From assembly GCF_964204645.1 (NCBI RefSeq), contig NC_134030.1, forward strand, positions 15,376,110 through 15,440,109: a DNA stretch of 64,000 nucleotides. The letters are read 5' to 3'. Source of the stretch: Tubulanus polymorphus (lineage: Eukaryota > Animalia > Nemertea). Positions 1,862 through 40,619 of the stretch are shown in pieces. Position 1 is the stretch's first letter. Every line of letters starts with the position of its first letter. The position numbers and the translations under genes are program-made. The notes below the pieces were generated by a model. It worked only from the letters and a program-made list of their open reading frames with translations, was not told the origin of the DNA and made no database searches.

Positions 1862-1885
1862 ATGCGTAATTATTTTTCTAAATAA

Positions 1886-2308: not shown

Positions 2309-2311
2309 TAA

Positions 2312-2736: not shown

Positions 2737-2752
2737 TTTTTTAATTATATAA

Positions 2753-4059: not shown

Positions 4060-4080
4060 TTTTAATTTTTTATTATGTAA

Positions 4081-5551: not shown

Positions 5552-5571
5552 TTAATTTTTTTGTTAAATAA

Positions 5572-6789: not shown

Positions 6790-6821
6790 AATTTTAACTT
6801 TAATAAAAATTTATATGATAA

Positions 6822-7574
6822 ATGGAAGGAGGTAAAGTATATAAACATATTCCATACATCGATACACATGAAAATAATGATGGTTTATATTATGTAATAC
6901 CTTGTAATATAGCTTTGATATTTGATCCTATTTTCAAAATTTATAAAAATAAACTAATGGAAATCGATAATAATAAAAGTGGTGTTGTTGATAATTTAAG
7001 TAATGTAATTGATAATAATGTAATACCTTCTACATCTAATAATGTAATACCTTCTACATCTAATAATGTAATACCTTCTACATCTAATAATGTAATACCT
7101 TCTACATCTAATAATGTAATACCTTCTACATCTAATAATGAAATAATATTAAATATTAGTGAAAATAGAAATTATTGTGATTATTGTAAAGGTGAATTTT
7201 CAAACGTTCCATCAAATTGGAATAAACATATGAATACAAAGACACATATTACTAATGTAATAGAACGTGTTGGTTTAAGAGAATTTATAGAACACCCATT
7301 TAAATATGTTACAAAATTTGTTTCAAATAAAAAAGTAAATGGTAAAGAATTATATGAAGATTTATTATTAGCAACACCTAATAGAGATGAATTAGATTTA
7401 ACCGATGCTAATAAAATATTAGGAGCAAACACTAATAAAGATAATAATGAAAATATAGTTACAGATATTGATAATAAAGATTCTATGAAACTTAAAGTAG
7501 AAAATAATGATAAATTTGATTGGATGAATAAGCATAACAATGAAACAACTTTTAATCCATTAATAATAATTTAG
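6822..7574 (+). CDS. 250-aa protein with C2H2-like Zn finger and (NNVIPSTS)x5 repeat
   Basis: YCDYC...HMNTKTH motif; occupies the position held by integrase in the inner element. Confidence 0.65.
   Translation: MEGGKVYKHIPYIDTHENNDGLYYVIPCNIALIFDPIFKIYKNKLMEIDNNKSGVVDNLSNVIDNNVIPSTSNNVIPSTSNNVIPSTSNNVIPSTSNNVIPSTSNNEIILNISENRNYCDYCKGEFSNVPSNWNKHMNTKTHITNVIERVGLREFIEHPFKYVTKFVSNKKVNGKELYEDLLLATPNRDELDLTDANKILGANTNKDNNENIVTDIDNKDSMKLKVENNDKFDWMNKHNNETTFNPLIII
7014..7140 (+). repeat. 24-bp coding tandem repeat x5
   Basis: AATAATGTAATACCTTCTACATCT repeated exactly five times. Confidence 0.95.
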
Positions 7575-7582
7575 ATTTTGTT

Positions 7583-7927
7583 TCAATGGCTTTCAATGGC
7601 TTTATGATTTGACTTATTTTCTGGTATGATTGGTTTATTATCATTGGAATCTTTATCATGAGATTTGAATTTTGATTTATATATTACGCCGGATAATACA
7701 ATAATTGTGATTAACCCAATTGTAATATATAAGTAATTATTTCTTCCACTATTAGAAGAATTAGATGGATTATTATTTGAATTAATATCAGATAAAGTCT
7801 GTGATTCATTTATATCAGTTAATTTCTTTTTCTTAGCTTTTTTTAATTCTGAAGATCTTTTACCGAATTCTCTTGCCCATTTAATTTGTTTCTCGGATCT
7901 AACCTTTTTCTTAACGCCATCACTCAT
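7583..7927 (-). CDS. Polinton ORF I, basic N-terminus plus single TM
   Basis: RSEKQIKWAREFG matches RSQKQIEWSRQLG of 26054-26407 (opposite strand). Confidence 0.7.
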   Translation of the reverse strand: MSDGVKKKVRSEKQIKWAREFGKRSSELKKAKKKKLTDINESQTLSDINSNNNPSNSSNSGRNNYLYITIGLITIIVLSGVIYKSKFKSHDKDSNDNKPIIPENKSNHKAIESH

Positions 7928-8527
7928 TTATTTTAGTTAATTTTTGTTCTGATTCATTTTCTGTTTCGCCGTTTGGTTGTAGTACAGCGTCATCTGTTTT
8001 GTTCTTACCTGATTTATATTCCATAGGTATGATATTCGAAAATGTTATGACGCCAGTAGAAATTAATGTCATAACCGATCCTAATTGAAATGAAGCATAT
8101 CCGACCCATTTTTTAATTCAGTCATAACTAAGTAGTCATTTTTCAAATCACTATATAATTTATTTTCATCATCAATTGGTATTAACTGGTTACATAACTT
8201 AGAGTAACATTTTATAATACCATCACTTATAGAGTCGTTTATTCTAGCTAATCTAGCTTCTTCATAAATCTTAAAATATTTTATTACTTTATCGGGTTTC
8301 ATAGCATCTAATTCTTGAAAAGTTATTATTTTCCCGATAAACTGATTACATTTACCACTAGTAATTAATAATTCTAGATGGTGCTTACAATATAAATAGT
8401 ATTCATAATCAATATTACAATTAATATTATTTTCAATTTTGATTGGAATATCCTTATTATCACTAATACCTAAATCATCTAATGTTTTTTCAATATCAAT
8501 ACTATTCTTACTCGATTTCTTTGACAT
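7928..8527 (-). pseudogene. Polinton ORF H (YEYYLYCKH family), frameshifted near 3' end
   Basis: ORF 8081-8527 homologous to the broken gene at 25519-26053. Confidence 0.65.
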
Positions 8528-8772
8528 TTATATTAGAGAAATTTAATAAGAAAAATATTATAAGTATTATAAAATGATACCAGTATCTCTTTAGATTAAT
8601 ACTAGCTTAGTTAAAGGTAAATAATTTTAGTATTAGTTATTGTTTTTTAGTACTTTTTATTTGTGATATAAAGTATTCTTTTTGAAAAGAAAATATTAAA
8701 AAAACAATAACTAATACTAGCTAGTTGAAGATATGTAATTTTTAATACTTTTTATTTAAAATCTATTATTCT

Positions 8773-9438
8773 TTAACCACTCATTAAAGACTCAACGTAT
8801 TGTTCATTATTTGGATTATTGTTCCATTGATCAATAAATTTCTTTGCCTTTGTTAACTGTTCTAAATATAACTGTAAATCTAGTTTATTAGATTTGATTT
8901 GATTTTCTTTCTTTTCAAGAGGTCTTAAATTTTTCCAACCCCAAATAAGTTTTTTATTGTATTCATCATTCATGTTAAATTTAGATATTGGTAACACATG
9001 ATCAATATGGTAATAATCCCCATAATTATCTATGTTCATTTTATCGTCGAATTGAAATATAATCCATGATTTGAGAAATTCATCTGAACAACCCAACAAA
9101 TTAGATAATGTTTCTGAATGTGTTTCTTTGTTGAATAATTGTGTTAATCTAGATCTTAAGCATTGTTTCAATCTAAAATTAAGATCTGTTTGATATCTTT
9201 CTCTCATATATTCTGCCATATAATAATTATAATGTTCTATATCATCTTCTCGATATTGTTTGGTATATAGTTTAGTGCAAGTTTTGCAGCAATATTGAAA
9301 ACCATCTTTGCTAATCTTACGCTTACTAAATTCTGTAAATGGTTTATCTAATTCACATTTAGAACACTTCTTGTAGTATATATTTATAACACCAGTGTTA
9401 TTTGTAATATTGATAATTTGTGGTTGTTCTGGTTCCAT
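8773..9438 (-). CDS. Zn-finger/HNH (endonuclease VII-like) nuclease of the type common in large DNA viruses
   Basis: CSKC...CKTC Zn motif, LLGCS, HIDHVLP...WKNLRPL...N..K HNH-type core; intact 221 aa. Confidence 0.75.
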   Translation of the reverse strand: MEPEQPQIINITNNTGVINIYYKKCSKCELDKPFTEFSKRKISKDGFQYCCKTCTKLYTKQYREDDIEHYNYYMAEYMRERYQTDLNFRLKQCLRSRLTQLFNKETHSETLSNLLGCSDEFLKSWIIFQFDDKMNIDNYGDYYHIDHVLPISKFNMNDEYNKKLIWGWKNLRPLEKKENQIKSNKLDLQLYLEQLTKAKKFIDQWNNNPNNEQYVESLMSG

Positions 9439-9575
9439 TTATTATACGTATTTTTTTACTAAATTGGTTAATATTTTAGAATCCCCTTCCATTTCTTCGA
9501 CCAACGTCATCCTTTTTCATTCCTCGTTGCTTTTGATAAGTCGTTTCGATTCCTTGATATCTAAATCATACCACA

Positions 9576-9969
9576 AGGCAAAACCGCTCTTATAGCAGCG
9601 CTTTTGCTTAATGCGCATGCGCTAATCATAATTATATATTCATTCTGTAAATTCTGTAAAATAGAAACGACCGACATAAAATATCAAAACGTGTTCGCAT
9701 TAGGCAAAACCGCTCTTATAGGAGCGGTTTTGATCAATGCGCATGCGCTAATCATAATTGAAACGACTGAACATAAAATATCAAAACGTATTCGCATTAG
9801 GCAAAACCGCTCTTATAGGAGCGGTTTTGATCAATGCGCATGCGCTAATCATAATTGAAACGACTGAACATAAAATATCAAAACTTGTTCGCATTAGGCA
9901 AAACCGCTCTTATAGGAGCGGTTTTGATCAATGCGCATGCGCTTATCATAATTGAAACGACTGAACATA
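9576..9969. repeat. 97-bp tandem repeat x4 with internal hairpin and GCGCATGCGC palindrome
   Basis: Units start at 9576, 9702, 9799, 9896; CAAAACCGCTC-ttatag-GAGCGGTTTTG stem (degenerate in unit 1). Confidence 0.95.
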
Positions 9970-10684
9970 GAACATTCACCAAGTAGATTTACACAATACA
10001 TTATACAAGTATGTTCAGTCGTTTCTTCCAATACATCATTTGATTTCTATATATAAAATCTATAATTACAAACATTTTTTCAATTGCTGGTAAATATTTA
10101 ACGACATCAACAAATATTAAACTTAATCATTGGAGTCTTAATGTTTTTGAAATTCTTATATAGTTTATTCGTTGATCTTTTGTGATTCTTGTGGTTCTAC
10201 GCCAGTTTCTATTGGTTCGATATCCATTGCTGTTGATTCCTCCGTCAGAAAGAGTATCTTGAGTTTCTCTATCGCTTCTTGATGTGTGTGACGGTTTATT
10301 AATCTAAAAGATATTAGCGGCAACTCTAGCTATCTAAAAGATATACTAAATACACTTAAATATATATATAAAGGTTTCATATTTAATAGCCCTAATAACT
10401 ACAAAAAAACAGTACTCACATTTAGATTTAGAATTGAAACTATAAAATCCTAATTTCGTTTCGAGAGATAGAATATCCTAAGCGTTATGTTACAGCGTCT
10501 ATTCAGAATTCTAGAATTTTCTACGCGTTTTCAGTATTATGACTCATATGTCTCAGCGTTATAGTAACAACTGTGACAGCTGTGAATTTATAGATTTATT
10601 CCATAGCTCTTTAAATGGAATGTATATAGGCTCAAATATAATCATGCTCTAGTATAAACAGCTATGTATTATATCATGTATATA

Positions 10685-10766
10685 AGTAATTGGAAAAGTG
10701 GGGTTTCAGATCAGAGGGCGAGACACCACTCATCACCACAAGTAATTTTTTTCCCTAATAAATGGG
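10685..10766 (+). repeat. Left terminal inverted repeat
   Basis: Reverse complement of 26861-26950; includes the TAAATG start of pPolB. Confidence 0.93.
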
Positions 10767-13700
10767 GGAGAATGAACAACAGCCAGAAAATAATAATGTT
10801 AATAAAAATCAATATTATTGCACATATTGTAAAAAATACGTCGATACATCTCATAAAACACGACATGAAAAAACTGCAAATCATATAAATGTAATAGATT
10901 TTGAAACTTCAGAAAATTCCAATGAAAGAAAAGAACGATTAGAAAATATGAATGTGGATGAAATAAAATGTGAAGTTTGTAATGAATTCATAACAAAAAG
11001 GAATTATAATAGACATCTCGAATCACAAAAACACCACCAAAATTTGAGTAATAATGTTTTAGGAAAAGATTATTTTGATGATAAACCTCAAAAAGTAAAA
11101 AAAAAACAACTTCAAAAACTAAATCCATTTCAAATAAACCTTACATGGAAAATGTTAGAAATTATATTGATTCACTAGAAATAAAAGATACAATTGAAAT
11201 TTTAGAAACATTACATAGTAAAATTGGTCCTGCAGCTATTATATTTAGATTTTTTAAAGGTACAACAATAGAAGATTATAGTAAATTTAATGAAATAATA
11301 GAAAAAATACTAGATTTGATAACAGATGTTGAATATCCAAAAATTAGTATCTCTGGGAAAGTAAGTTTTATAAAGTCAGAAGAAAAAATGGATTATAATA
11401 TTCAAACACTCTCTGAAGAAATAATTTCAAAAACACAAATAAAAGAAGTTAGAAAAAATATTTAATGAATTTAAACGTCATATTGAAGAAAGATATTTTG
11501 AGGGTTCTAGCTTAACATTGAATGAAATTATATATTTAGATTTAAATGTTTACAATACAAAAAGGAATAAAACATCAAAAAGTAATAAAATGTTTAAAAA
11601 TGATTCAAACTTTACAACAGAAAAGGATATTAAAGCATCATCTTATATTAAATTACCATTTACAACAAAAGCAGTAATAAATGTTCAAAATGAAGATAAT
11701 AAATGTTTTCTATGGTCAATTATTAGTTGTTTACATCCAATACAGGAAAATGTTTGTAGAATAACAGATTATCGGAAATACGAAACATTATGTAAAATTG
11801 ATCAATATCCAGTAACTATAAAAATGATTCCTAAAATAGAAAAAGTTAATCATTTAAAAATAAATGTATTTGAATTAATGAAATTACCAAAGACAAAAGG
11901 TGAAAATATTAAAGATTATACATTGGAAGCTTTATATTTAACAGAATATTATGATGATGAAAATGCTATAGATTTGTTATATTACAAAAAAGATGAAAAT
12001 GAACATTATATGTGGTTAAAACAAATTGATTTATTCTTTAGAACAGAAAGTGATCACCATCATAAAATTTATCTATGTAGAAAATTTTTATCTAAATTTA
12101 TGACTGAGAATACATTATTAAAACATAAAGAATTATGTGATAATAAAGATTTTTGTAAATTAATAATGCCAACAGGAAAAAGATTATAAATTGAAATTTA
12201 CTAATCATAAATTTAAAAATATTGTTCCATTTGTAATTTATGGGGATTTTGAATCGTTGAATAAAGAATTAACTGATCAAGATAGAAAAGAAATATATAA
12301 CAAAAAGCAATTATTAAAATCAATGGATAAAGGAAATGAATTAAATGAAGACACAATACAAGACCCACCAATTATAAATACAATTAAAAAAGTTCATCAA
12401 AGAGCTGCTGGTTATGGAATTTATATAAAATCAAATTATCCCGAATTATATGAAAGTCAATATATTTCTTTAAGAGGTGAAGATGTAGTTAATGATTTTT
12501 GTGACAAAATGATTGAATTAGAAAGTGATTTTGCAAAATTATTAAACAAAAATAAAAGAATAGTTATGACAAAAGAAGATGAAATTGATTTTAATTATGC
12601 AACTCATTGTTGTTATTGTGAAAAACGTTTTTATTCATTTGATAAAAAAGTTAGAGATCATGATCATTTCAATTCAAAATATCGTGGAGCTGCTCATGAA
12701 GATTGCAATTTACAAGCTAAGAAAGTTAATTTCGTACCAATATTATTTCATAATTTATCAGGCTATGATACCCATCTATTTATAAAACAATTATCAAAGA
12801 ATTTGGGTACAATTAATCAAGAAATAGAAGAATATAATGCTATGAATGGTGTAAATGTAAGAAAATATGATATTATTATCCAAATGACCAAGATTTTAAA
12901 TTATTGAGATATAAAGGCGCAATTCCTTATTCATTTTATAAAACACACAATGATTTTAATGTAACAGAATTATTAAAAGATCAATTTTATGATCAATTAA
13001 AAGAGGAGTATGTGAAAGACGAAGTGTTTAATAGAACATTAAATACTTGGAACCATTTTAAGATGAAAAATCATGGCGAATTAGTTGATTTATATTTAAA
13101 ATCAGATGTTATGATATTAGCTGACATATTTGAAAAATTTAGAGAAGTTAATTTGAATCATTTTAATGTTGATCCTTGTTATTGCTACTCTAGTCCTGGT
13201 TTAACCTGGCAATGTGGTTTAAAATATACAAATGTAGAATTAGATTTATTAAAAGAACCAGATATGGTTCTATTATTTGAAAAATCAATTAGAGGTGGAA
13301 TTAGTGGTGTTATGGGAGATAGATATTTTAAAGCAAATGATGAATATAAATTATTATATATTGATGCCAATAATTTATATGGTTGGGCAATGATACAAAC
13401 CCAACCATACAAAAATTTTATATTAACAGAAGTTGAAAATGATAACAAAACTGATTGGGAAAGCGCAATTGCGAGTTTAAAAGATGAAGCACCAATTGGT
13501 TATTTCTTTGTAGTTGATTTAGAATATCCTGAAAATATAAAGTTTAAAACAAGAAACTTACCTTATTGCCCAGAACATTTAACTGTATATGATAGTTATT
13601 TAAGTGAATACCAGAAGAAAATAAAACCGAAAGATCATGTTTTTACAGAAAAATTAATACTTACTCAAAATAATAAATACAATTATATCGTTCATTATAG

Positions 13701-15690
13701 AATGTTAAAATTTTATCTAAAACAAGGAATGAAATTAAAGAAAGTACATAGATATATTGAATTTAATCAATCGAAGTGGTTAGAAAAATATATAGATTTC
13801 AATACTCAACAGAGAACAATATCAAAAACAGATTTTGAAAAAGATTTCTTCAAATTAATGAACAATAGTTTTTATGGTAAAACATGTGAAAATATTAGAA
13901 ATAGAAATGATATTGAATTAGTAAATAATTCTGAAAGATTAAGACATTTACAATCAAGTCCTAGACATTTAGGAAATAAAAGATTTGAAGATTATTTAAC
14001 AGCAGCTATTAAATTAAAAAGAACGTCAATGAAATTTAATAAACCTATATTCATTGGTTCAACTGTTTTAGAAGTATCAAAATTATTAATGTATGATTTT
14101 TATTATAATGTTTTACAACCACTTTTTGGGGAAAAGCATATTGAAATATTATACTTTGATTCTGTAACAGCTGACACCCCAATATTATTAAAATGTAATA
14201 ATAAAATATTGATAAGAAGAATTTCAGAAATAATTCCAAAACAAAATGAATGTTATATTTCATATGGTGAAAAAGAATTAATACAAATAAATGGTTTAAT
14301 GGATGTTTGGACAAGAAATGGATGGAAAATATTAAAGAATATTATTAGGCATAAAACAAATAAGAAAATCTATAGAGTTAGAACTAAATTAGGGTTTGTA
14401 GATGTTACAGAAGATCATAGTTTAATTACACGAAATGGCGATGAAATAAAACCAACTGATATAAAAATTGGAGATGAATTATTACATAAAAGATTTTTCC
14501 AAAGAATGAATCATATGTCATTTGATGAAATAATTGATAATATTTATAACATAGAACCCGAAACATTAGAAGAAAAAGAATATTTTATCAAAGGATTTTT
14601 CATGGGAGATGGTTCAGCAGGTGTGTATAATTATGTTAATCGCACTCAATATTGCTGGTATTTATGCAATCAAGACTTAAAATTATTAGAAAGAATAAAG
14701 AAATTCTGTGAAGAAGTTTATCCAAATAAAACATTTAAAATCATAGATGTTATGAAATCATCGCAATGTTATAGAATACATGTGAATAATCCTAAAGATT
14801 TTGCTATAAAATATAATGACGAATTCTATATTCATGCAATAGTGAAAAGTAATACTTCAACTAAAGAAAAGATAGTTCCAGATTATGTATTAAATGCAAA
14901 AAATAATTTAAGAAAATGGTTCTTCATTGGATTCTACGCAGCAGATGGTACTAAAAGTTTCAAAAACCGCAAAACAATATCTTTAGCTCAAAAAGGAAAA
15001 GTTGCTATATCAGGATTGAATATATTATGCAATTCATTAGGTTTTAATATGAATATTGGATTGATTAAATCTAAACCAAATTGCTTTAATTTAAGCCATG
15101 TAGAAAATGAGTTAACAGAAGAAGTTAAGGATTTATTTGAAATATATAACCCATCAGATTATGTTTATGATTTATCAACTGAAGATGGTACATTTAACTG
15201 TGGATTTCCATTAATAGCAGTCAATACTGACGCCTACATACTAAAAATCAAGACAAATGATATAACAAAAGACTTAAAAACATTAAAACATCATTTTGAT
15301 TTTAGCAATTATCCCAAAGATCATGAACTATTTAGCAATGATAATAAAAAGATTCCTGGTAAGTTTAAAGATGAATTAGGGGGTGATGAAATGATTGAAT
15401 TTGTTGGGATAAGAAGTAAAATGTATAGTTATAGAACAAAAGATCATGAAGCTAAAAAGTTATAAGGAATAACAAAACATGTGGTTGATAAACATATGGA
15501 ATTTCAAGATTATATAAAGTGTTTATATAAATCAATTGTAATGAAACACAAAATGAATTGTTTAAGATCAGAAGATCACGAGATGTACATTAATGTACAT
15601 TAATTAAGTTGAAAAACTAGTTTAAATCCATTTGATGATAAAAGGCATATTTTAGATGATGGAATAAAACGATTACCTTATGGTCATTAA
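10762..15690 (+). pseudogene. polB: Protein-primed family B DNA polymerase (N-terminal Zn fingers, vOTU-like region, EndoVII-like Zn module, exonuclease, polymerase) with intein; several frameshifts/stops
   Basis: NEDNKCFLWS...HY; YGDFES (ExoI); VRDHDH...YRGAAH..CN; FHNLSGYD (ExoII); YLKSDV (ExoIII); SIRGG; YIDANNLYG (A); KLMNNSFYGK (B); YFD/TD (C); KMY; terminal PYGH. Confidence 0.95.
14161..15225 (+). mobile_element. 355-aa intein with LAGLIDADG homing endonuclease in pPolB motif C
   Basis: YFD|SVTADTPILL...VTEDHSL (block B)...IKGFFMGDG...FIGFYAADG...YVYDLST (block F)...IAVN|TDA; removing it restores YFDTDA. Confidence 0.93.
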
Positions 15691-16332
15691 AACATAAAAT
15701 CAATATCATCATACTCGAAATCACTATTGGCTTCTTCATTTTCATTTAATTGTTTAGGTTCTTCTTCCATTTCATTTTTCTATTAAAACAAAGTTCTATC
15801 TTGTTCCACATTTCATCTCGCTCTGTTTGTTTGTTAATTCATCAAATGGAATTATAATATCTTATAAATTACAATCTTATTTAAAAAGAATTCATAATTT
15901 ATTGAATCTGTTATTCTATTTTCCAAATGATACATTAATATTTGTTTGAATATTTTTTTTATATTTTTCATATCTTCTTCTGTTAATTTAGATTTTTCAT
16001 AATAATCGTTAAATAATAAATATAAATACATTTTCTTTTGTTTTGTGTTAAATGTTGACGGAATAATTGTTTTTATAATATCTTTTTTAGTTATTTCACC
16101 ATTTTTATTTTCTATTATTTTCATTTTTTCAAGCCATTGCATATATTCTGGTGTATGATCTTCTATAGAAAATATTTTAAAAATTTCATCTAGATAATTT
16201 AATTTTGGATCTATGAGAAAATTTCTAGTTTTTTCTTCACTCCATAAATTCTTTTGCCATCCACATTCACTACAAAATAACACAGTACCTTCTTGTCTTA
16301 AGGTCGCATAACTACATTGTGGACATTTTCAT
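15687..16332 (-). pseudogene. Poxvirus late transcription factor VLTF3 (A2)-like protein, frameshifted
   Basis: Reconstructed MKCPQC..(11)..FCSEC Zn ribbon; KLTEEDMKNIKKIFKQILMYHLENRITDSINYEFFLNKI resembles, from memory, the vaccinia A2 segment ending TINYSFFLDKI; core ORF 15852-16283. Confidence 0.78.
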
Positions 16333-16985
16333 TTATAATTTATTGGTAATAGATCTTCATTGAGCTCTTGGTATTTTCTTACGTTTTCTTTATGTTTTCT
16401 TGTTCTATTATGTAGATTTGAATTACTTGTTGTAATAATCAATTTACAATATTTACAATAATATGTTTTTCTTGTTAATTCATTATATTGTTTTTCTAAC
16501 TTTTCAACTGTTTCTTTGTTATCTGGTAACGTTTTCTCATATTTTATTTTTTCTAATAAATTATGTTTTCTTTCGTTGAATTCAGTTTCAAATTTATTAG
16601 AAATTTTATCTATATGTGCGTTACGAAATTGATGATTCTCCCAATCTTCTATATTTTCAGGGCTATATTTTACTTGACAAGGCTCACAGATATGATCTTT
16701 TATATTATCCTTATCATAGAATAAGAAAGGTCTTTTCCAAATACCTTCAGGTTCAACTTCAACAGAATTACTATTACTTTCATAACTATCAACATTAGCC
16801 GTTGCGCCATTAATTTTACACTTCTCTGAATGTTTTTTAACATAATTTCTTGAGAATAATTTATTACATTTTGGGCAGTTTAGTTTAGGGGGTTTATAAT
16901 TTTCATCATGTTTTTTCATATGTCGAGCCATATTACTTTTTCTTAGAAGTTCACCACAAATTTCGCATGCTATCTTCTCATCCAT
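16329..16985 (-). CDS. Multi-zinc-finger protein, 218 aa
   Basis: CEIC..HMKKH, CPKC..H...C, CEPC..H....H, CKYC..HNRTRKH; its stop overlaps the VLTF3-like start (TAAATGA). Confidence 0.75.
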   Translation of the reverse strand: MDEKIACEICGELLRKSNMARHMKKHDENYKPPKLNCPKCNKLFSRNYVKKHSEKCKINGATANVDSYESNSNSVEVEPEGIWKRPFLFYDKDNIKDHICEPCQVKYSPENIEDWENHQFRNAHIDKISNKFETEFNERKHNLLEKIKYEKTLPDNKETVEKLEKQYNELTRKTYYCKYCKLIITTSNSNLHNRTRKHKENVRKYQELNEDLLPINYK

Positions 16986-17053
16986 TTATTAAGGAAAAAT
17001 TTTATTAAAATTAATTTTTAGTGACGAGCGGTAATTTTTTTATGTTATAAATA

Positions 17054-17810
17054 ATGGTAGAATTAAAAGAATACAGAATATTTGTTGATTCTAGAAAACT
17101 TACAAATTATAAAACTCATAATTTACTAGTACAATTAGATAGGGAATATAAAAATTGTGTAGATTTAAAATTAGTAAATATAATTTTATGTAATTCTTTT
17201 TATAATGTATCGGATAAAAGTCTAGAACATTTAATTTTTCAATCTTTTACAAAAAAAGGAATAAATGGTTTTTTTATATTTAAAACCAGGATTATATAAT
17301 TTAGATACATTAGCACAAGAAATTAATAGAAAAGCTCGAGCTAAATTAGGAAGTGATTCCGGATTTAGTATTAGAATTTTAAAAAGTGATAGTTCTAATA
17401 AAATAAAGATTAGGTTAGCTAATGACGAACAATTTAAATTTACAGTAAGAAAACCTTTAGGTAAACTGTTTGGAATTAACCCAGATATTGTTACAGCATA
17501 CGCAGAAGGTAGATCAAACTTAATACCTTTTACACATTTTTATATTTATTGCAATTTGATCGACCCAACAAAAACATTTGAAGCAACTAAAGATACAATT
17601 TGTAATTCTGGTTTATTAAATATTTTACCATTAAAAAATGTCAAACAATTTGGAACTCAAATAAATTATAATTTAACTGAATGTGATTTCAAACCTTGTA
17701 TTCCACATTTCAATAATTTTAAATTAGAAATAAGACATCATAATGGTTATTTAATTGATTTGAATAACTTTCCTGTAATTTATGAATTAGTTATAAGATG
17801 TAAAGAGTAA
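17054..17810 (+). pseudogene. Minor capsid protein (penton), one frameshift
   Basis: PGLYN, YIYCNLID, LLNILP, LEIRHHNGYLIDLNNFP..YEL pattern typical of Polinton pentons; ORFs 17054-17299 and 17265-17810. Confidence 0.75.
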
Positions 17811-17826
17811 TTTTTTCATTATATAA

Positions 17827-18186
17827 ATGAATATAACTGTTGGACCGAGTATATGTTTTGGATTTGATTTTAAACGTGAGAAAGAAATGAAATTTAACAT
17901 TAATGATGTAATTACACATATCAAAAATATTGCATTTTCTAATGAAACAACATTTGAGTATGAAAGAACAATAGATAAAGAAACTTTAAATGTAGAAAAG
18001 ATTACTAATTTAATTAGAGAATCTTTAAGATTTTATGAATTAGATGAAGATTTTATCATAGATGATATTAAAAACATATTAACCAAAATATATGATAATC
18101 ATAAAAGTAGTAATGAAATAAATGTTGAATTAATCATAAATAAGATAACGAAATATTTTGATGATAGTAATTTTTTTGATAAATAA
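17827..18186 (+). CDS. Polinton ORF A
   Basis: Paralog of 1283-1639. Confidence 0.7.
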   Translation: MNITVGPSICFGFDFKREKEMKFNINDVITHIKNIAFSNETTFEYERTIDKETLNVEKITNLIRESLRFYELDEDFIIDDIKNILTKIYDNHKSSNEINVELIINKITKYFDDSNFFDK

Positions 18187-18412
18187 ATGAGTGATAATAA
18201 GTGGATAATAACTGGATTATATAATGGAGCATTACTATTAGTTTGAACTGTTTAAAAATTTATAAAAAGTATTAAAAAAAGTATTCAAAATGGGAAGTTT
18301 TAATGTTGATAGATTTGATATAAATGATATCTTAAAATTAACGTTAGCAGTTACTTTATCTAATTTAACTATTGATTATTTAGAAAAACAAAAATATATT
18401 CCTCCCATATAA
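18187..18412 (+). pseudogene. Polinton ORF B, disrupted
   Basis: Aligns to 1640-1861; premature TGA near 18244. Confidence 0.65.
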
Positions 18413-18436
18413 ATGCGTAATTATTTTACTAAATAA

Positions 18437-18859
18437 ATGGCTTCTGCAATTAAAACTATTATAGGATCGGCAATTGTTAACGCTTTGGCATTTACTGGTG
18501 GTGGATATTTATTTAAACATATTGATAAAAATAGTTCATTAGGAGAACAAAGAAGACATATTTTAGCGTCAGAGAAATACAATAAAGCTGCAGAAGAATA
18601 TAGAGAAAAGAGACAAAACTATATGGATTACATCAATAAAGAATTATATGATCAGAAGATTTCACATAGAGATTTTCAATCAGTTGATGATGCAATGAGT
18701 TTATATAACGCGGTAACCAATAAAGAAAAATTACATCTATACAAACCTAAATTATCAGATTATTATACCCCAAGTAATGAACAACAGAAATATGAAATAA
18801 TTTGGATTTTAGGTGGAACAGTTATTGTTATATTTGTTGCTTATAAGTTTACTAATTAG
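18437..18859 (+). CDS. Polinton ORF C, 140-aa membrane protein
   Basis: Paralog of 549 and 1886 ORFs. Confidence 0.75.
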   Translation: MASAIKTIIGSAIVNALAFTGGGYLFKHIDKNSSLGEQRRHILASEKYNKAAEEYREKRQNYMDYINKELYDQKISHRDFQSVDDAMSLYNAVTNKEKLHLYKPKLSDYYTPSNEQQKYEIIWILGGTVIVIFVAYKFTN

Positions 18860-18878
18860 TAATTTTTTTTCTAAATAA

Positions 18879-19310
18879 ATGGAAGATAAAGTTGATAATA
18901 TTGATATTATTCCTCATGATATAAATAAAACTAAATTAAAAACATATTTAGAAAAACAAATATTAGAATTTGAAAGTGACTTAAAGATAAAAAAGAAAAA
19001 ATATTTATAAAGTAAAATTATATATCTTATTATCAGTGGTTCGGTTACAATTAGTTCTGTAATAACATTTCTAGCAATATTCAGTCCATTAACACCTTTA
19101 GCTATATCAATTGGTGTGTGAGGATTAAGTTCAAGTGTTTTAACTGGTATAAGTTCAAAATTAAACATAAAAAGTAATAAAGAAAAAATTAAAACTAATA
19201 TAAAAGAAATTAATAAATTAAAGAACACACTAGATTTAAAAATAGGTTTAAATGGTCATATAACAGTTGAAGAACAAGATAAATTATTAAAAGAATTAAT
19301 AAATTATTAA
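18879..19310 (+). pseudogene. Polinton ORF D, two-TM protein with in-frame stops
   Basis: TAAATG-GAAGAT start; aligns to 992-1092 and 2312-2736. Confidence 0.65.
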
Positions 19311-19326
19311 TTTTTTAATTATATAA

Positions 19327-20708
19327 ATGGTAGATAGTTTTCCAAAAGCTTTCCAATATAATAAATCAATTAAATATAATATTCCAGCAATAGATTTTAA
19401 TAAAGATATTACATATAGAAATGAAGTTTTAAATTCATTAATTGATTTAGAAATTTATGTTACTGAAACTAATAATTTTAATGCAAAGATGGAAAATATA
19501 TTTCATGTATATTTAATTAATTTTAAAAAATTGAAAGATGAAAAACAATGGTTATTAAAATCTAATATGAAGTATTGGCAGAACCAATTAAATTTTGCTG
19601 TTTATTGTGCAACAACAGGTTGTGGAATTAGTTGGAATGATCATTTGAATAATTCTAAATATAAATTAATTCAAAGTGTATTTAGATTTCATACATACTT
19701 TCAAATCAGAATAATATTAAATGAATTAGAGTGTGCTTTACCAGGATCTAGATATTTTAAAGAATTAGATAATAATATTAATTTATCAAAGTTTTATAAA
19801 ATTTGTAATGAATTTAATATAGATATAAAAAATTCTGATTTTAGAACAAAAATTGGAACAATAAGATCACTTCCTTGCCCTAGAAAGATTGCAGAATATT
19901 GTGCACTTCCCATACCATCTAATACTTTTTATAATAACTATAATAATAAATTAGGTTATGGTAAAATAGAAACAAAGGATTTAGAAACATTAAATTTCAA
20001 TAAATTACCGACTTTTTATGATAATTTAAAACAAGAAAACAATAATGGTTGGGTTTATTTCATTTTAGAAAATAATGAAGGTTTTACAAAATCAGGTATA
20101 CAAAGAATAAATCAATCTATTAGAACTTATTTGATATGTATTCTAGGTGCACAAGTTGAAAAAAGATCACCGATAATTGGAAATTTGAATACATCATTCG
20201 ATACACAAAAACAATTTAAAGTTTTATTTGAAGATTCCATACATAATGATAAAAATAGATCGATTCCAGACAACATTGTAAGATATCGAAATTATTTAGA
20301 TAAATCACATATTAGATTAAATTATTGTATAGGCCCTTATCTATTAATTATTTCTAATGATTTAGTATTAAAGATGGGAAATATAATTGGTTATAATAAT
20401 CTAATTAAAACTGCAACAATAAATAATTCATTTGGATTGAATGATATAGATAAAAAGATAATTACTGCTCCAAAATTAATGGAAGGTGAAAAAAATTAAA
20501 AACATATTCAATCAACTGAAACTAAAACTAATAATATTAAATTAAATAATGATTCTAAAATAAAAGATTATAATACATCAGAAGATATTAAAACTGATAT
20601 TATTCAACATGATATGATTAAAACTAATGATGATAATAAATCCCATGAAAATGCTAAATTAGCTTTAACTTGTATAGGAATTGTTATAGGAGGAATATTA
20701 TATTTTAA
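19327..20708 (+). pseudogene. Polinton ORF E, frameshift near 20495 separates the C-terminal TM
   Basis: 390-aa ORF 19327-20499 plus tail ending GIVIGGILYF. Confidence 0.75.
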
Positions 20709-20731
20709 ATTTTAATTTTTTTATTATATAA

Positions 20732-22162
20732 ATGGATGTAGAAGGTGGAGAAGATATTGGAATGGATAATTTTGATGAACCTGGTATAACTGATGAACAA
20801 CCACCTGATTTTGATGAAACAAGTTTTAATGATGGTAATGAGCCAGAATATAATAATAATTTGAATATACCTGATTATATTAAAAATGCGGAATCACAAT
20901 TAAATCCTGAAAATTTAGACCCAGATTTAGTAAAACAAGATTTAGATAATTTAAACAAAATACCTAAATTAGAAGATTTAATTGAAAAATCTAAACTTAA
21001 CATAAATGATGAAGACGTTGGACTTTTAGCAGATCAATTAAAATTTTTAGATAATGGTAAATGTTATTATCGTTTGAAAGATGATTATTATATTGATATC
21101 ACTTATTAAAAAAAAATAATAACAAAATGAACTTTGAGAAAATTAGATCCAGATAGAATTAAAAGAATAAGTAATAGTAATGTAATAACTGATGTTATAA
21201 AACAAGAATTAACTGATAATGATATAGACGTATTTAAACAAAGAATTAATGAATTATTTGAAATAATCAAAAAGAAATCAGAAACAGAAACAAGTTCTGA
21301 ACAGAATATAACTTCCAAAACTAGTAAACTTAAATCAAATAAAGTTTCAATTGAAAAACTTTTACCGAATGGATTAATTGATGCAACAGATCAACAATTA
21401 GAAGATTTAAATAATATATTTTCTGTTGAAGCAATTAGAGAAATTAAAAGTATAAGGCTTGCATCTGATGAAATTGCGCATGATAAAAGTATAAGAGATT
21501 TAAAAGTTAGAACTTTAGAAGATGAATTATTTAAATCAAGAAAAGAATCGGAACAACTAAAATTAGATTGAAGTTATTGAAGAAATTGAATTTAAAAAAA
21601 GAAATGCATATTTAGAAAAAGATGTTGATGATTTTAGAATATAACATAGAATTACAAAAAGAAGAAATTAAATTATTATTAAAATCATATGATTATAATA
21701 TTAATAGATTAAAAGTTATTTTTAAAGATTTATTGATAAAACCAAATTCTAAAATATCATTGAAAGATAGAATAAAGTTATTATTTAAATTAGAAGGAAT
21801 AACAATTCTTTCAATTCTAACAGCTGTAACTATGTTATTTACAACAATTGGTTTAGCAATATCAAATGCTTTTAAATCTACTCCTACTCTAAATAAACCG
21901 GATAAACCCCCGAATGATAATAATTCTATACAAGATAAAGTTAAAGATGGTTTAAAGAAATTAGCAAAATATTTATGGGAACTATCTAAAAATTATCTGC
22001 TGCAGCTTCACCAGGAATTATTGCATCAATTGTTGGTTTTATATTGAAATCTGCTGGGAATATTCTTAACTTTGCTGCTGAACATATTATTTTATTTTTA
22101 ATTACAGTTGTAAGTGCTATTATTTTTGGGTTAGTGAATATGATATCAAAAAATATCAAGTA
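20732..22162 (+). pseudogene. Polinton ORF G, fragmented
   Basis: ORFs 20732-21109, 21134-21571 and 21622-22047 collinear with 4081-5551. Confidence 0.7.
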
Positions 22163-22203
22163 AACATGATTAAAAATAAATAATTAATTTTTTTGTTAAA
22201 TAA

Positions 22204-23451
22204 ATGAGTGGGAGTTATATAAGTCCTTCTAAGATTTCTAGAATATCTAATGCTATTAAAGCAGAAAGATCACATCATATTATTACTCATAATCCTTCAA
22301 ATATTAATCCCGATGAAACTTTATATGTTAGAATCCCTCGATTAACACAAAATACTTTTTATGTTCCAAATAGTATTTATTTATCAGCTGATATAAAAGT
22401 AATTGGTCATGATAATAATTATGTTGTTGATAATGTTGGAAGATATTTGATTAAAAAATTAACTATAAAGATTGGTCCAGAAACAGTTTTCTCATTAGAT
22501 GATTATAATTTATTTATGCATTATAAAGATTTATGGTTAACTAAAGAAAATAGAAATAATATGATATTTCAGGGTATTCAATCGGAAAACCATAATAAAT
22601 TAAGATCAGGAGCTAATGACGCAATAGTAACTCGTGCCACAGATAATTTGATTAAAAAGATTTATGGAAGCAAATATAAAATTCCATTAGATTTTGAATT
22701 GATAAAAAATAATGCACCTTTATATAAATACGCAATTCAAGAAGATATTATATTTGAGATAACATTTGCTCCTGTAAATGAAATTGTATTATCTAGCGTT
22801 GTTAAAGATATGGGTTATAAATTATCGAATATATGTTTAGAATATGACACAGTAACTAATGAAAATATTGCTAGCACAATTCAAACTCAATACAATCAAG
22901 GATTTTCATTATTATATGATTATATTGATAAATTTAAAACTGTAACTATTAATGCAAATGATGAAATCATTAATGAGAATATTAACTTCCCAAGAAGATC
23001 TATTAAAGGTATATTAATATTTTTTACCATTGCAACATATTCTAATGGCGCAATAAAGGTAGATAATTATTATAATCCTGAAATAACAAAAGTAGAAATA
23101 ACCATTGAAGGAATAGCAAATAAAATATTTTGTCAAGGAATGAGATTGATAGATCAGTGGCCAGAAATTAGAAAACATTTTATGAATGAAAAAGTAAAAT
23201 CATTTGAAAATTGTAATATTAATCAAATTGATTATTATACCGGCAATAAATATGCATTATGGTTAGATTTTAGAACAACAGAGGATAATTCATTACATGG
23301 TTCTGGGAAAAAACTACAGAACACTAAAGATGGAATACAATTATTCATGAAAAAGAAAAGAGGAGACAAAAATTTTAAAATGCATATTTATATTATATCT
23401 GATGCACAATTAAATATTGTAAATTCACAATTAGATAGTATTCAATATTAG
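22204..23451 (+). CDS. Double jelly-roll major capsid protein, intact 415 aa
   Basis: Size, position next to integrase/ATPase, and motifs ITHNPS, N.GR..IKKL, YKDLW, RSIKGILIFF, KYALWLDFRT...LHGSG, DAQLNI recognised from invertebrate Polinton MCPs. Confidence 0.82.
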   Translation: MSGSYISPSKISRISNAIKAERSHHIITHNPSNINPDETLYVRIPRLTQNTFYVPNSIYLSADIKVIGHDNNYVVDNVGRYLIKKLTIKIGPETVFSLDDYNLFMHYKDLWLTKENRNNMIFQGIQSENHNKLRSGANDAIVTRATDNLIKKIYGSKYKIPLDFELIKNNAPLYKYAIQEDIIFEITFAPVNEIVLSSVVKDMGYKLSNICLEYDTVTNENIASTIQTQYNQGFSLLYDYIDKFKTVTINANDEIINENINFPRRSIKGILIFFTIATYSNGAIKVDNYYNPEITKVEITIEGIANKIFCQGMRLIDQWPEIRKHFMNEKVKSFENCNINQIDYYTGNKYALWLDFRTTEDNSLHGSGKKLQNTKDGIQLFMKKKRGDKNFKMHIYIISDAQLNIVNSQLDSIQY

Positions 23452-23481
23452 AAATATAAAGTTAAAATTAAGGATATATAA

Positions 23482-24610
23482 ATGGGTGGTAAAAAAAACT
23501 CCTAATACTAAAGAACAATATTTAAGAAATTTATATTACAACCCTGAGAGTTCGGTTGCTTATTCTTCTACCAAAAATATATGGCGTCAAGTGAAACAAG
23601 ATAAATTAGATAAGATAATCCCACAAAATTTAGTTAAATATAAAGATATAAATGAATTTAAGTTAGAACAACCAACATACACAACACATAAAAAAATTGT
23701 TAGAAAATATAAAACTCGTAAAACTATGGTAAGTTATGTAGATCAACAGTGGCAAGGAGATTTAATTGATATGAAAAATGTTAAGAAAGATAATGATGAT
23801 TATTGGTGGTTATTGAATATAATTGATATTTCAGTCGTTATGTATGGAGTTTCCCACTTTATAGAAAAGATGCTGTACAAACATCAAATGTTTTAAGAAA
23901 ATTTCTTTCGGATGATAAACTAAAACCAGAAAAAAATACAATTTGATGATGGAAAAGAGTTTGATAATTCACTTGTTCATGAACTCTTAGGTAATCATAA
24001 TATTAAATATTTTTCAACAAAATCGGATAAAAAAGCAGCAGTTGTTGAACGATTTAATAGAACATTAAGAACAAGAATGTGGAAATATTTTACAGCAAAT
24101 AATACTTTTAAATGGATTGATGTTTTACCAAAATTGATAGAAGGATATGATAATTCTTATCATTCTTCTATTGGAATGAAACCTATTGATGCTAGAAAAC
24201 CTGAAAATGCTGAAATTGTTTGGAATAATTTATATGGTGCATTTCTTGTAGATGATTTTGGTGAACCTAAATTTAAAGTTGGTCAAAATGTTAGAATATC
24301 TAAGTATAAAAAGATATTTGACAAAGGATACGATCGAAATTTTACTAGGGAAATATATAAAATAAAAAAGGTAATAACAACAAAACCATATGTCTATAAA
24401 TTAGAAGATTTAGATGGTGAAGAAGTTGATGGCTACTTTTACGAAGAAGAATTAAGTTTAACTACTGAAAATCTAGAACAAGAATATAAAATTGAAAAAG
24501 TATTAAAAACAAAAACTATTAAAAGAAAAAAATATTCTTTAGTAAAATGGGTTGGATGGCCAGATAAATTTAATGAATGGATATTATCGAGTAAAATTAA
24601 AAATATATAA
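23482..24610 (+). pseudogene. Retroviral-like (c-)integrase with C-terminal chromodomain, frameshifted
   Basis: LYYNP, WQGDLIDM, QFDDGKEF, KAAVVERFNRTL, YDNSYHSSIGMKP, chromodomain YKIEKVL...LVKWVGWPDKFNEWI. Confidence 0.92.
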
Positions 24611-25214
24611 ATGAATAAGGAATTATTTATATTTGAGCCTCATAATATGTTAATATCTGGCGTAACAAATTTTGGAAAAACTTATTTTATATTAAATTTA
24701 TTAGAAACTGTTTATGAAAACTATTTTGATAATATAGTATTATTTTGCCCAACATATGAATTTAATCAAACTTATGATAGAAATATTACTAGAAATAATA
24801 AATTTATTATATTAGATCCTAAAACAGTAAAAGAAAATTTAGATAATTGTATAAAAATAGCAATTGATATTTATAAAGGATCAAATACATAATTTATCAT
24901 AGATGATTGCGCAAATTTACATGATTCAAAGAGAAAGTGAGTTATGTTATCTAGCTTTCTCTGGGAGACATTTTGGGATAACAACATGGGTTTTAAATCA
25001 AAAATATAATTCAATTGTTAAAGACTTTAGAGAAAACATTAGATTTCTAGTTTTATTCGACAATAAAGATAGAAAATCGATGAAAAATGCACTTGAGGAA
25101 AATGATATTATTCCACATGATTTACATAATGAATATATGGATAAGTTGAAAAATATTAAAAGATCAAAATTACTATTTAGATTACAACACCCATTTAAAT
25201 ATGAATTTATTTAA
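24611..25214 (+). pseudogene. A32/FtsK-HerA family DNA packaging ATPase, stop plus frameshift
   Basis: Walker A GVTNFGKT, Walker B FIIDDC just after the stop at 24890, SGRH arginine finger, LNQ motif. Confidence 0.88.
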
Positions 25215-25216
25215 AT

Positions 25217-25490
25217 TCAACTAGCTTGTTAATCTAGTTGAATTCTAGTTACATTCTAGTTGAATTCTAGTTATTGGTAGTTGTAACAAAAATCAACTAG
25301 ATTTAACAATATTTTAACTAGCTTGTTAATCTAGTTTAATTCTAGTTACATTCTAGTTGAATTCTAGTTGTTAGTAGTTGAAACAAAAATCAGCTAGATT
25401 TAACAAGAAATAAACAAAAACAACAATATTTCAACTAGCTTGTTAATCTAGTTGAATTCTAGTTACATTCTAGTTGAATTCTAGTTGCAA
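25217..25490. repeat. Intergenic CTAG-rich repeat x3 built from 11-bp subunits
   Basis: AACTAGCTTGTTAATCTAGTT(G/T)AATTCTAGTTACATTCTAGTTGAATTCTAGTT at 25219, 25316, 25433. Confidence 0.92.
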
Positions 25491-25518
25491 CATCACAACT
25501 AATTTTTTTGTTATATAA

Positions 25519-26053
25519 ATGGTAGGTGAAAAGAAAGTAAAAACTAAAAATGGTGATGTTCCAATTGAAAAAACTTAAGATGATTTAGGAATAACAGAAA
25601 CAAAATTAACTCCAGATGATGGTGCTTTAAATAATGTTACAACAAATAATAATTATGAATATTATCTTTATTGTAAACATCAATTAGAAATATTAATAGC
25701 ATCTGGAAAATGTAAAAATTTTGTCGGTAAAAATTTAACTTATAATGAATTAGATACAATGAAATCAGATGAAATTATTAGATTATTTAAGATTTATGAA
25801 GCCGCGAGAACAGCTAGAATTAATGACGCGATATCAGAAAATGTAGTAAAAGGTTATAGTAAATTATGTAATTATACTACCAATTGAAGATGAAAATAGA
25901 TTATATTCCGATTTAAAAATGATTATTTAGTTATGACTGAATTAAATAAATGGATTGGATATTTATCATTTCAATTAGGTGGATTTATGACATTATTATC
26001 AACTGGGGTTATAACATTTTCAAATATTGAAAGTAAAAATATTTCTATAATAA
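25519..26053 (+). pseudogene. Polinton ORF H, disrupted
   Basis: YEYYLYCKHQLEILI.SGKC matches 8081-8527. Confidence 0.65.
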
Positions 26054-26407
26054 ATGAGCGAGGTGGAAGAAGTGAAGAAAAAACCGAGATCACAGAAACA
26101 AATTGAATGGTCTCGGCAATTAGGAATTAAATCACAAGAATATGAAAAAGCTGTAAAAGAAAAAATAAGTAATAAAAATGTTAATAAAAATGGTGAAAAT
26201 ATTGTTATTTCTACTCCTTCTAATAATAGAATATTTGATAAATGTCTATATTTTACAGTTGGATTTGTAATTGTATTCATTTTGAGTGGGTGTAATTGGT
26301 ATAAGAAATCAAATAAAATTCATGATATTAATAATTCTGAAACAACTGCTATCAAAAATGAAAATAATTCTGAAATTCCAAAATTGACAATTAAAAAAAT
26401 GGATTAA
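26054..26407 (+). CDS. Polinton ORF I, single-TM protein
   Basis: Homolog of 7583-7927. Confidence 0.7.
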   Translation: MSEVEEVKKKPRSQKQIEWSRQLGIKSQEYEKAVKEKISNKNVNKNGENIVISTPSNNRIFDKCLYFTVGFVIVFILSGCNWYKKSNKIHDINNSETTAIKNENNSEIPKLTIKKMD

Positions 26408-26568
26408 TATTTTAGAAAAAAAGCAAAAAAATAATTTTTTTTTAATTAATTGAATATTAATTGAATATCTCACTACATTTGTCTATCTATGCGGAGCAAT
26501 TAAATTGTCCAGATAAGTTATTTCGGATTCTTAATATTCATTATTTTTATTAATTTATTTTTTTTAAA

Positions 26569-26865
26569 TTAATCAACAATTTCTAAATCATGATGGCCAT
26601 CTTCATGGCAATCTTTTAATTCCTCTGTACTCAATGAAACCCATTTATCAGGTAAAAATACTTTAAATTCTCGCGATGTACTAACATTACAGTAGCTTGA
26701 ATTAGCTGATACTTTCTCTCCATATTTAGTTTTTATCTTTTCTAATTTCAATATTTTATGTTCAATTTCTTTTGTAACATCAACTAACTTTTTTATTTCA
26801 AATTGTTTTTTTGCTGGTTTTATTCTGTTATTTATTGTTGCTAAGAATGCTTTTCTATCTCCCAT
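26569..26865 (-). CDS. 98-aa hypothetical protein starting inside the right TIR
   Basis: TAAATG start supplied by the TIR. Confidence 0.6.
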   Translation of the reverse strand: MGDRKAFLATINNRIKPAKKQFEIKKLVDVTKEIEHKILKLEKIKTKYGEKVSANSSYCNVSTSREFKVFLPDKWVSLSTEELKDCHEDGHHDLEIVD

Positions 26866-26950
26866 TTATTAGGAAAATAAATTACTTGTGGTGATGAGTG
26901 GTGTCTCGCCCTCTCGCCCTCTGATCTGAAACCCCACTTTTCCAATTACT
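26861..26950 (-). repeat. Right terminal inverted repeat
   Basis: Reverse complement of 10685-10766 with a short CTCGCCCT duplication. Confidence 0.93.
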
Positions 26951-27159
26951 TATATATGAATTATTTCAATCATACTTTACTAACACTTTTAATGTTTAAA
27001 AATCTAACTCGTACAAATATAAATATTGAAATAATGTTTAAAATATATCTATATATCTATTCTATAAGAGCTCGTTAATTACTGGTTACTTTTAGATCGA
27101 ATAATCTATCAATTTATATGTTATTCATGTAAATTATGTTTATTTATGAATATTTTAAG

Positions 27160-27352
27160 AGTAATAGGGGTAATGGGCTTTCAGGTTAAAGGTTGAGAGG
27201 TTGAGAAATTTTCCAAATGTGAAATAATAATAATTTCTACTTGAATTAGGAGTGTACGCGACTAATTCAAATAGAAATTATTGTTATTTTCACATTTGGA
27301 AAATTTCTCGACCGTTCGACCTTTGACCTGAAAGCCCATTACCCCTATTACT
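27160..27352. repeat. 193-bp fold-back made of two Polinton-TIR-like arms
   Basis: AGTAATAGGGGTAATGGGCTTTCAG...CTGAAAGCCCATTACCCCTATTACT; ~90-bp arms, 12-nt spacer. Confidence 0.9.
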
Positions 27353-27449
27353 CGCGTTAACTAAACATTTTTGAACAGAACGGTTGAAGATGAGTGTATA
27401 GATCAATAGAATGCATCATATTTTGAAATAAAATGAAAAAGTGTCAGTT

Positions 27450-34450: not shown

Positions 34451-34500
34451 AAGCCCCCCCACCAGCCCTGAACGTCCTCGTTCAGACGAGGCGACATAAC

Positions 34501-34574
34501 AAAACATACAGGTTATACAATATAGAAAACATACAGGTTATACAATATAGAAAACATACAGGTTATACAATATA
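34501..34574. repeat. 25-bp tandem repeat x3 in the Gypsy 3' UTR
   Basis: AAAACATACAGGTTATACAATATAG. Confidence 0.9.
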
Positions 34575-34595
34575 TATGAGGGAAACGACGACAGT

Positions 34596-35465: not shown

Positions 35466-35517
35466 ACTACAATGAAATAATAAAAACACAGTTTTTAATT
35501 ATGTGACATCGGTTTCG

Positions 35518-40597: not shown

Positions 40598-40615
40598 ATC
40601 CCACCGCTGCCACCA
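40598..40615 (-). other. Primer-binding site (tRNA-Leu type)
   Basis: TGGTGGCAGCGGTGGGAT 4 nt inside the 5' LTR boundary. Confidence 0.85.
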
Positions 40616-40619
40616 ATTT

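Follow-up and report, generated by a model that had tools for sequence, protein, structure and literature searches.

We identified a decayed Polinton of 16.3 kb (positions 10685–26950) in a 64,000-nucleotide stretch of Tubulanus polymorphus DNA (contig NC_134030.1; this whole stretch is called the window), and found that 15 of its 16 gene starts read TAAATG, whereas this context surrounds 36 of its 640 other ATGs (5.6%; p 3e-18 in a binomial test). This start signal is a clade-level trait that is limited to some Polinton lineages, and it shares its layout with the poxvirus late promoter. On the basis of the observed Polinton gene set, the motif, its clade-wide conservation, and the failure to find an RNA polymerase gene, we propose that the element is probably a Polinton with a virophage-like lifestyle, for which a large DNA virus infecting the same cell, of whatever kind, supplies the RNA polymerase. 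That this helper was pox-like is suggested only tentatively.

The TAAATG starts occur on both strands and within both inverted repeats, and the sole exception, the penton gene at 17054, reads TAAATA/ATG. Homologous N-termini in the related loci L001, L003, and L005 back nine starts, six with exact agreement (17827, 18437, 18879, 19327, 24611, and 25519) and three that differ by at most one codon (17054, 18187, and 22204); at 16985, 23482, 26054, and 26865 the homologous N-termini were offset, and the starts at 10762, 16332, and 20732 were without such support. A T-run (at least four T within −20 to −7) precedes 11 of the 15 TAAATG starts of this element, the inner copy, and ends at −9 to −11, that is, 5–7 nt before TAAATG. 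When a second Polinton copy in the window, the outer copy, was included, the T-run was present at 20 of 28 TAAATG starts versus 9 of 63 non-start TAAATG words (p 1.6e-7). An additional TAA at −19 to −17 was found at 13 of the 15 inner starts, a feature that an earlier reading of the sequence alone (the sequence-only reading) had not singled out. The full start pattern thus consists of TAA at −19, a T-run to about −10, a spacer, and ATAAATG. The sequence-only reading had listed the 15 starts, a T-run before most of them, and a TAA that is usually not the stop codon of the upstream gene; all of this was borne out, since each listed start reads TAA/ATG and the TAA doubles as the upstream stop at only two of the 15 (18187 and 24611). 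It had also counted the outer copy, where all 13 starts are indeed TAAATG, but the outer copy is 87–93% identical to the inner copy across most of the genes with TAAATG starts, and hence most of these starts are not independent evidence. A splice-acceptor reading of the motif was rejected, as no AG stands before the ATG.

The distribution of the motif was examined in the best 80 of 312 Polinton loci fetched by capsid, with starts called mechanically as the first ATG of open reading frames (ORFs) of at least 100 amino acids. In the 16 loci with at least 51% capsid identity, which include some near-duplicates, TAAATG was found at 54 of 64 ORF starts versus 96 of 2323 other ATGs (4.1%), and TAG/TGA-ATG at 1 of 64. 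Eight of the other 64 loci had TAAATG at 21 of 23 starts, and the remaining 56 at 4 of 259. In a capsid tree built by a quick method (51 rows, with 30 of the 80 loci left out as short or identical), the window fell in a 15-row clade with an SH-like approximate likelihood ratio support of 99, 14 rows of which carry the motif; two or three further lineages on the tree also carry it, requiring two to five changes. The GC-richer clade members L006 and L007 keep the motif at five of seven starts, and at −3, 52 of 59 ORFs in the clade have T, whereas 196 of 235 ORFs in other Polintons have a purine. The sequence-only reading had named unrelated AT-rich Polintons as a decisive comparison; those outside the clade do not use TAAATG equally often (3 of 25 starts, two of them in L036, versus 54 of 64). 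Composition and ordinary translation context therefore fail as explanations. Capsid searches of viral contigs yielded no relative, and those of a prokaryote collection yielded one stray 798-nt contig.

Other start arrangements were also seen in these loci. TATA within 16 nt before the ATG (background 4–8%) was present at 14 of 25 starts in L016/L018/L019, 15 of 52 in the L022–L038 group, and 38 of 125 in the L033–L080 group, none of which are TAAATG clades, and starts in L024, L025, and L038 often end in TAAAA/ATG; these words are possibly lineage-specific helper promoters. In L012 (213–238) and L013 (242–267), back-to-back TAAATG starts lie about 24 nt apart on one bidirectional AT core. The close relative L003 has a deoxynucleoside kinase gene (10340–10981) under the same promoter as the clade, suggesting that captured genes acquire the motif; its single viral match, at 37%, was uninformative.

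We compared this layout with poxvirus and giant-virus signals. The giant-virus set consisted of 31 non-redundant loci out of 41 fetched with the phosphoesterase of L085. One locus set is presumably iridovirus-like, a label that comes partly from its Pfam content; in a second, related giant-virus set, the two tested capsids, those of L216 and G003, matched that of Singapore grouper iridovirus (SGIV) best. According to PMC5294985, the vaccinia late promoter has a T-containing core 5–7 bp before TAAAT(G/A), and the element matches this layout, with TAAAT(G) overlapping the start codon at 15 of 16 genes and a T-rich core 5–7 bp upstream. Many fish poxvirus genes are likewise marked with TAAATG in PMC4542343. 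When the vaccinia late group I consensus (Table 1 of PMC11423596) was applied without its first Y, this core was found at 10 of the 15 inner starts and at 23 of 54 in the clade, versus 4 of 63 non-starts. In the iridovirus-like set it was present at 1 of 35 starts, and in the other giant viruses at 16 of 84 (p 3e-6 and 4e-4, respectively).

Several results weigh against a poxvirus as the source of the signal. The full group I consensus including the Y is present at only 4 of the 15 inner starts, and the comparison was made with the printed consensus only. TAAATG was found at 35 of 112 ORF starts (31%) in the iridovirus-like loci and at 84 of 370 (23%) in the second set (background 3.5%), and in L216 and G003 the capsid gene starts show TAAAA/ATG after a T-run. 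Since TAAATG is thus enriched 6–9 fold at the starts of iridovirus-related giant viruses as well, the word itself is not pox-specific. T5NT looked depleted in the closest relatives (7 versus 19) but not in the window (12 versus 16), and T and A runs were depleted generally, so that the T5NT depletion is not specific either. The intein in motif C of the element's family B DNA polymerase (PolB) belongs to the same side: the PolB genes of the giant-virus bins G002 and G003 have a related intein (28–29% identity) in this position, none of the best 150 intein relatives matches the N-terminal polymerase part of the element, and the solved structure nearest to the best intein relative is polymerase delta. 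AATAAA was not depleted in any group and so cannot separate nuclear from cytoplasmic transcription. In the iridovirus-related loci L203–L243, AAATG is strongly enriched at ORF starts, as is TAAATG.

Almost all of the best 150 intein relatives reside in RNA-primed PolB, 110 of them with a GD/SV junction, and PF00136 was detected in 29 of the 31 relatives scanned. The best intein-bearing relative resembles the PolB of G002/G003; no locus was found around it. Among related Polintons the intein is patchy, being absent at the same site in L006 and L034; one short match, P0272 (76%), appeared by eye to be another protein-primed PolB (pPolB). The presence of intein relatives in giant-virus-type PolB suggests past DNA contact with giant viruses; as the identities are only about 28–42%, the exchange may be old.

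These observations could be accommodated by the same virophage-like mechanism with an iridovirus-related giant virus as the helper, its late initiator being a T-run with TAAA(A)ATG. We regard this alternative as rather unlikely. It would explain the TAAATG rates in the two locus sets, the T-run and TAAAA/ATG of the SGIV-like L216 and G003 capsid genes, the motif C intein common to these PolB genes, and the deoxynucleoside kinase gene of L003, and iridovirus-like particles from marine invertebrates are reported in PMC5923455. However, the layout fits poorly, given the low counts of the group I core and an upstream TAA at only zero to two starts per locus, and AAAATG, which iridovirus-related viruses often use, is not used by the Polinton clade. 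The possibly old date of the intein exchange also argues against it. Virophages tend to copy the hairpin rule of their helper. Of the gene ends in the iridovirus-like set, 39 of 61 have strong 3′ hairpins, as do 26 of 84 in the other giant viruses, compared with 3 of 46 in the clade and 1 of 9 in the window. Hairpin-defined ends of invertebrate iridoviruses are cited in PMC5923455, and pox post-replicative transcript ends are described as heterogeneous. The consensus fit and the missing hairpins together tilt the balance towards a pox-like over an iridovirus-related helper. A motif scan of a sample of viral contigs (6 of 64 parts) found TAAATG at 47 of 499 ORF starts, with no locus at a clade-like rate and no helper candidate. 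The claim of pox-type late transcription made from the sequence alone stands with regard to motif shape, lineage restriction, and an origin other than AT-richness, but is not established with regard to a poxvirus as helper, given the TAAATG starts of iridovirus-related viruses and the giant-virus-type intein.

Explanations without a helper were weighed as well. In an autonomous element, a host factor or the VLTF3-like protein of the element itself would redirect host polymerase II to start at TAAATG in the nucleus; we judge this unlikely. It is favored by the candidate VLTF3-like gene, whose own start is without a T-run, and by the multi-copy state of the family in the host. The prasinovirus-like locus L137 has TAAATG at three of nine starts, and prasinovirus-like viruses are not known to have an RNA polymerase. 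Small viruses with VLTF genes exist, according to 10.64898/2026.06.19.733378. Conversely, the VLTF3 identity is weak, and nothing among the starts stands out as a separate early class. With a TATA-like word next to the ATG, polymerase II would start about 25–30 nt inside the ORF, which is a further argument against autonomy. The motif might instead reflect translation context, stop–start coupling, or a poly(A) signal of the upstream gene (AATAAA inside AATAAATG), and AATAAA at −5 in 8 of 15 inner starts and the two shared stop codons would agree with this. We consider it improbable, since AATAAA is absent from the other seven, the terminal or divergent starts at 10762, 16985, and 26865 have the full motif with no upstream gene on their own strand, T at −3 is opposite to the purine of other Polintons, and the fixed T-run and TAA at −19 would be left unexplained. 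Chance in AT-rich DNA or biased start picking was suggested by the 24% GC of the element and by the starts of its broken genes having been picked by eye; the p value, the mechanical first-ATG calls in relatives (54/64, with TAG/TGA-ATG at 1/64), and the AT-rich Polintons that mostly lack the motif make it exceedingly improbable.

The zinc-ribbon gene at 15770–16332 had been taken, as a VLTF3-like gene, to point to poxviruses. It has an N-terminal zinc ribbon, and an Atlas comparison gave 0.93 to PF04947 clusters with 204 features in common, a recognition below the reliability threshold of the tool. No Pfam match to PF04947 was obtained even at E 5, there was no BLAST match to the VLTF3 of L244 or L137, and a homolog search was empty. 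The VLTF3 label is therefore weakly supported, resting on the Atlas lead. It would not indicate a poxvirus anyway, because VLTF3 is known across giant viruses and in Polintons, where VLTF3-like genes have been reported (PMC11131425, section 8).

The features of the two copies are as follows.

1–9438 (unstranded): outer copy, a second, rearranged, decayed copy of a related Polinton with 13 TAAATG starts
10679–10684 (unstranded): left target-site duplication TATATA, repeated at 26951–26956
10685–10769 (+): left terminal inverted repeat, beginning with AG and containing the first T-run and TAAATG start
10762–15690 (+): pPolB, broken; Pfam DNA_pol_B_2 (PF03175) E 1.8e-15; tblastn matches to L023, L024, and L028
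14164–15210 (+): LAGLIDADG-domain intein, located within motif C (YFD/S) of the PolB
15770–16332 (−): zinc-ribbon gene, candidate for a VLTF3-like factor, broken, with approximate end; TAAATG, no T-run
16329–16985 (−): C2H2/U1 zinc-finger gene, open; T-run and TAAATG
17054–17810 (+): penton (minor capsid), frameshifted; start TAAATA/ATG
17827–18186 (+): conserved gene, no function assigned, open; T-run and TAAATG
18187–18412 (+): small hydrophobic conserved gene, broken; TAA of TAAATG is the stop of the upstream gene
18437–18859 (+): conserved gene, no function assigned, open; T-run and TAAATG
18879–19310 (+): conserved gene, no function assigned, broken; T-run and TAAATG
19327–20715 (+): conserved Polinton gene, no function assigned, broken near the 3′ end; T-run and TAAATG
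20732–22163 (+): acidic, coiled-coil, hydrophobic gene, broken; T-run and TAAATG
22204–23451 (+): double jelly-roll capsid, open; AlphaFold predicted local distance difference test (pLDDT) 87.8; TAAATG start
23482–24610 (+): retroviral-type integrase with chromodomain, broken; TAAATG, A-rich upstream
24611–25214 (+): A32-like packaging ATPase, frameshifted; Pox_A32 (PF04665) E 5e-6; TAA of TAAATG is the stop of the integrase gene
25519–26106 (+): conserved gene, no function assigned, broken; T-run and TAAATG
26054–26407 (+): conserved basic gene, no function assigned, open; TAAATG
26569–26865 (−): terminal gene starting inside the right inverted repeat, open; T-run and TAAATG
26858–26950 (−): right terminal inverted repeat, ending with CT
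26951–26956 (unstranded): right target-site duplication TATATA, matching 10679–10684

The element thus has the pPolB, RVE integrase, double jelly-roll capsid, and A32 ATPase of Polintons, together with terminal inverted repeats and a 6-bp target duplication. The capsid model matched the Paramecium bursaria chlorella virus 1 and SGIV capsids (Foldseek E 3e-16) and that of mavirus (7e-11). The single jelly-roll penton was recognized through the L003 ortholog (41%), whose predicted fold resembles the mavirus penton (E 4e-8, mean pLDDT 69). For the integrase, the window frames gave only a sub-cut-off Chromo match and the L001 ortholog has rve at E 1.7e-9; an Endonuclease_7 match in the PolB gene was also below the cut-off. 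In agreement with the sequence-only reading, a scan of 29 frames (one short frame was omitted) detected no RNA polymerase, and no Ulp1-type cysteine protease profile matched these frames at E 0.01. Its picture of the genes had to be corrected, as most genes of the inner copy are interrupted by stops or frameshifts, with the capsid and five small genes open.

The GC content of the element is 24% versus about 39% in the flank. Raw reads with the same species label (1.9 Gb) covered 9500–26500 approximately 90–750 fold, mostly with 90–99% identity, and the element is therefore a multi-copy family. A Polinton-like terminus may lie near 27090 (right flank, 26957–27090), in which case the outer copy's right inverted repeat may enclose the element; the matching left end is outside the window. 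The outer copy contains a tandem duplication of about 1.3 kb spanning three or four small genes (1–2310) and two genes of its own (6822–7574 and 8773–9438), one with a 24-nt tandem repeat and one HNH-like, both starting with TAAATG. The left flank (9440–10678) is high-copy and contains 97-nt tandem repeats, a block of short CTAG-rich repeats follows the ATPase gene (25215–25490), and a MITE-like 66-nt inverted repeat (27159–27353) lies just right of the element. Elsewhere in the window are a near-intact Gypsy long terminal repeat (LTR) retrotransposon (32700–41300; LTRs 99% identical; gag, reverse transcriptase, RNase H, and integrase) and a second Gypsy-type element (59491–63858) that has a chromodomain integrase and, after it, an env-like ORF (60518–61771), labeled by eye without a Pfam match. 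Gypsy and other retroelements mark the host as a eukaryote, presumably a marine invertebrate; a search with a Penelope-like reverse transcriptase yielded no informative names, and Rfam yielded no match.

Among known systems, the element resembles Polintons/Mavericks (Polintoviricetes; adintoviruses) in its pPolB, RVE integrase with chromodomain, double jelly-roll capsid, penton, A32 ATPase, inverted ends, and 6-bp target duplication. It differs from them in its uniform pox-late-type starts, in the lack of a detected Ulp1 protease in the frames scanned, and in an intein of the giant-virus PolB motif C type. With the poxvirus late promoter it shares the word, the overlap with the ATG, the spacing, and the group I core at 10 of 15 starts; unlike that promoter, the signal has an extra conserved TAA at −19 and serves all genes rather than one temporal class. 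In yeast, the plasmid pGKL1 depends on the polymerase of pGKL2. Like the element, pGKL1/2 have a pPolB and inverted ends, and their TAAAN initiator gives 5′ poly(A) leaders, but they are cytoplasmic plasmids that have no capsid, encode an RNA polymerase of their own, and use an upstream element resembling that of pox early promoters (PMC6211774). The mavirus and endogenous mavirus-like element (EMALE) virophages of Cafeteria are similarly integrated, with RVE, pPolB, and one motif before the genes; this motif, TCTA, can match the late promoter of the helper, Cafeteria roenbergensis virus (CroV), and mavirus and type 4 EMALEs use the CroV late motif (PMC8547959). In contrast, the present element has a Polinton-type capsid, a different motif, and probably an animal host. 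The polinton-like viruses (PLVs) found in entomopoxvirus occlusion bodies (Barth et al. 2024, PMC11296320) are also Polinton-related viruses with a poxvirus link; by their description, they are set apart by being found together with their helper, by encoding a protease, and, in two cases, by having no integrase.

Homing-endonuclease insertions in Polinton pPolB, along with VLTF3-like genes, have already been reported (PMC11131425 and PMC11161782). Targeted literature searches found no report of the TAAATG motif in Polintons, although supplements or subscription papers may mention it. The words "promoter" and "TAAAT" do not occur in the main text of PMC11296320, nor does "promoter" occur in the accessible text of PMC8502044, PMC11131425, PMC11161782, PMC12220804, 10.1101/2024.03.23.586382, or two 2026 preprints. 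A Polinton clade with uniform pox-late-type starts hence appears to be new, while virophage promoter mimicry and pox-associated PLVs are already known.

In the helper-dependent mechanism that we favor, the clade-wide T-run and TAAATG would be read by the RNA polymerase of the helper, not by host polymerase II. The viral multisubunit polymerase would start inside the AAA of TAAATG, and its slippage would add a 5′ poly(A) leader to compensate for the unfavorable T at −3, as in vaccinia and in yeast virus-like elements (PMC6211774). Replication and capsid genes would all belong to one late class, and such a single promoter class would keep an intact copy silent until a helper is present, as with mavirus-type EMALEs (PMC8547959). 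After helper infection, the intact copy would replicate with its own polymerase, be packaged in its own capsid, and re-integrate.

A fixed clade-wide initiator gives a direct handle on how Polintons integrated in animal genomes are transcribed and whether they need a helper. The motif is a short candidate promoter suited to reporter assays, and it could also serve to trace the helper among host sequences. It is conceivable, although doubtful, that a widespread clade of marine-animal Polintons parasitizes marine pox-like viruses yet to be discovered, as true virophages, and that each Polinton lineage bears the late promoter of its helper as a readable tag, TAAATG in this clade and TATA-type words in others. 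If so, genomes would reveal whether animal Polintons depend on helpers and which unseen viruses these are. A pox-like helper would further point to unseen poxvirus relatives in marine invertebrates and would extend virophage biology, demonstrated so far in protists, to animals.

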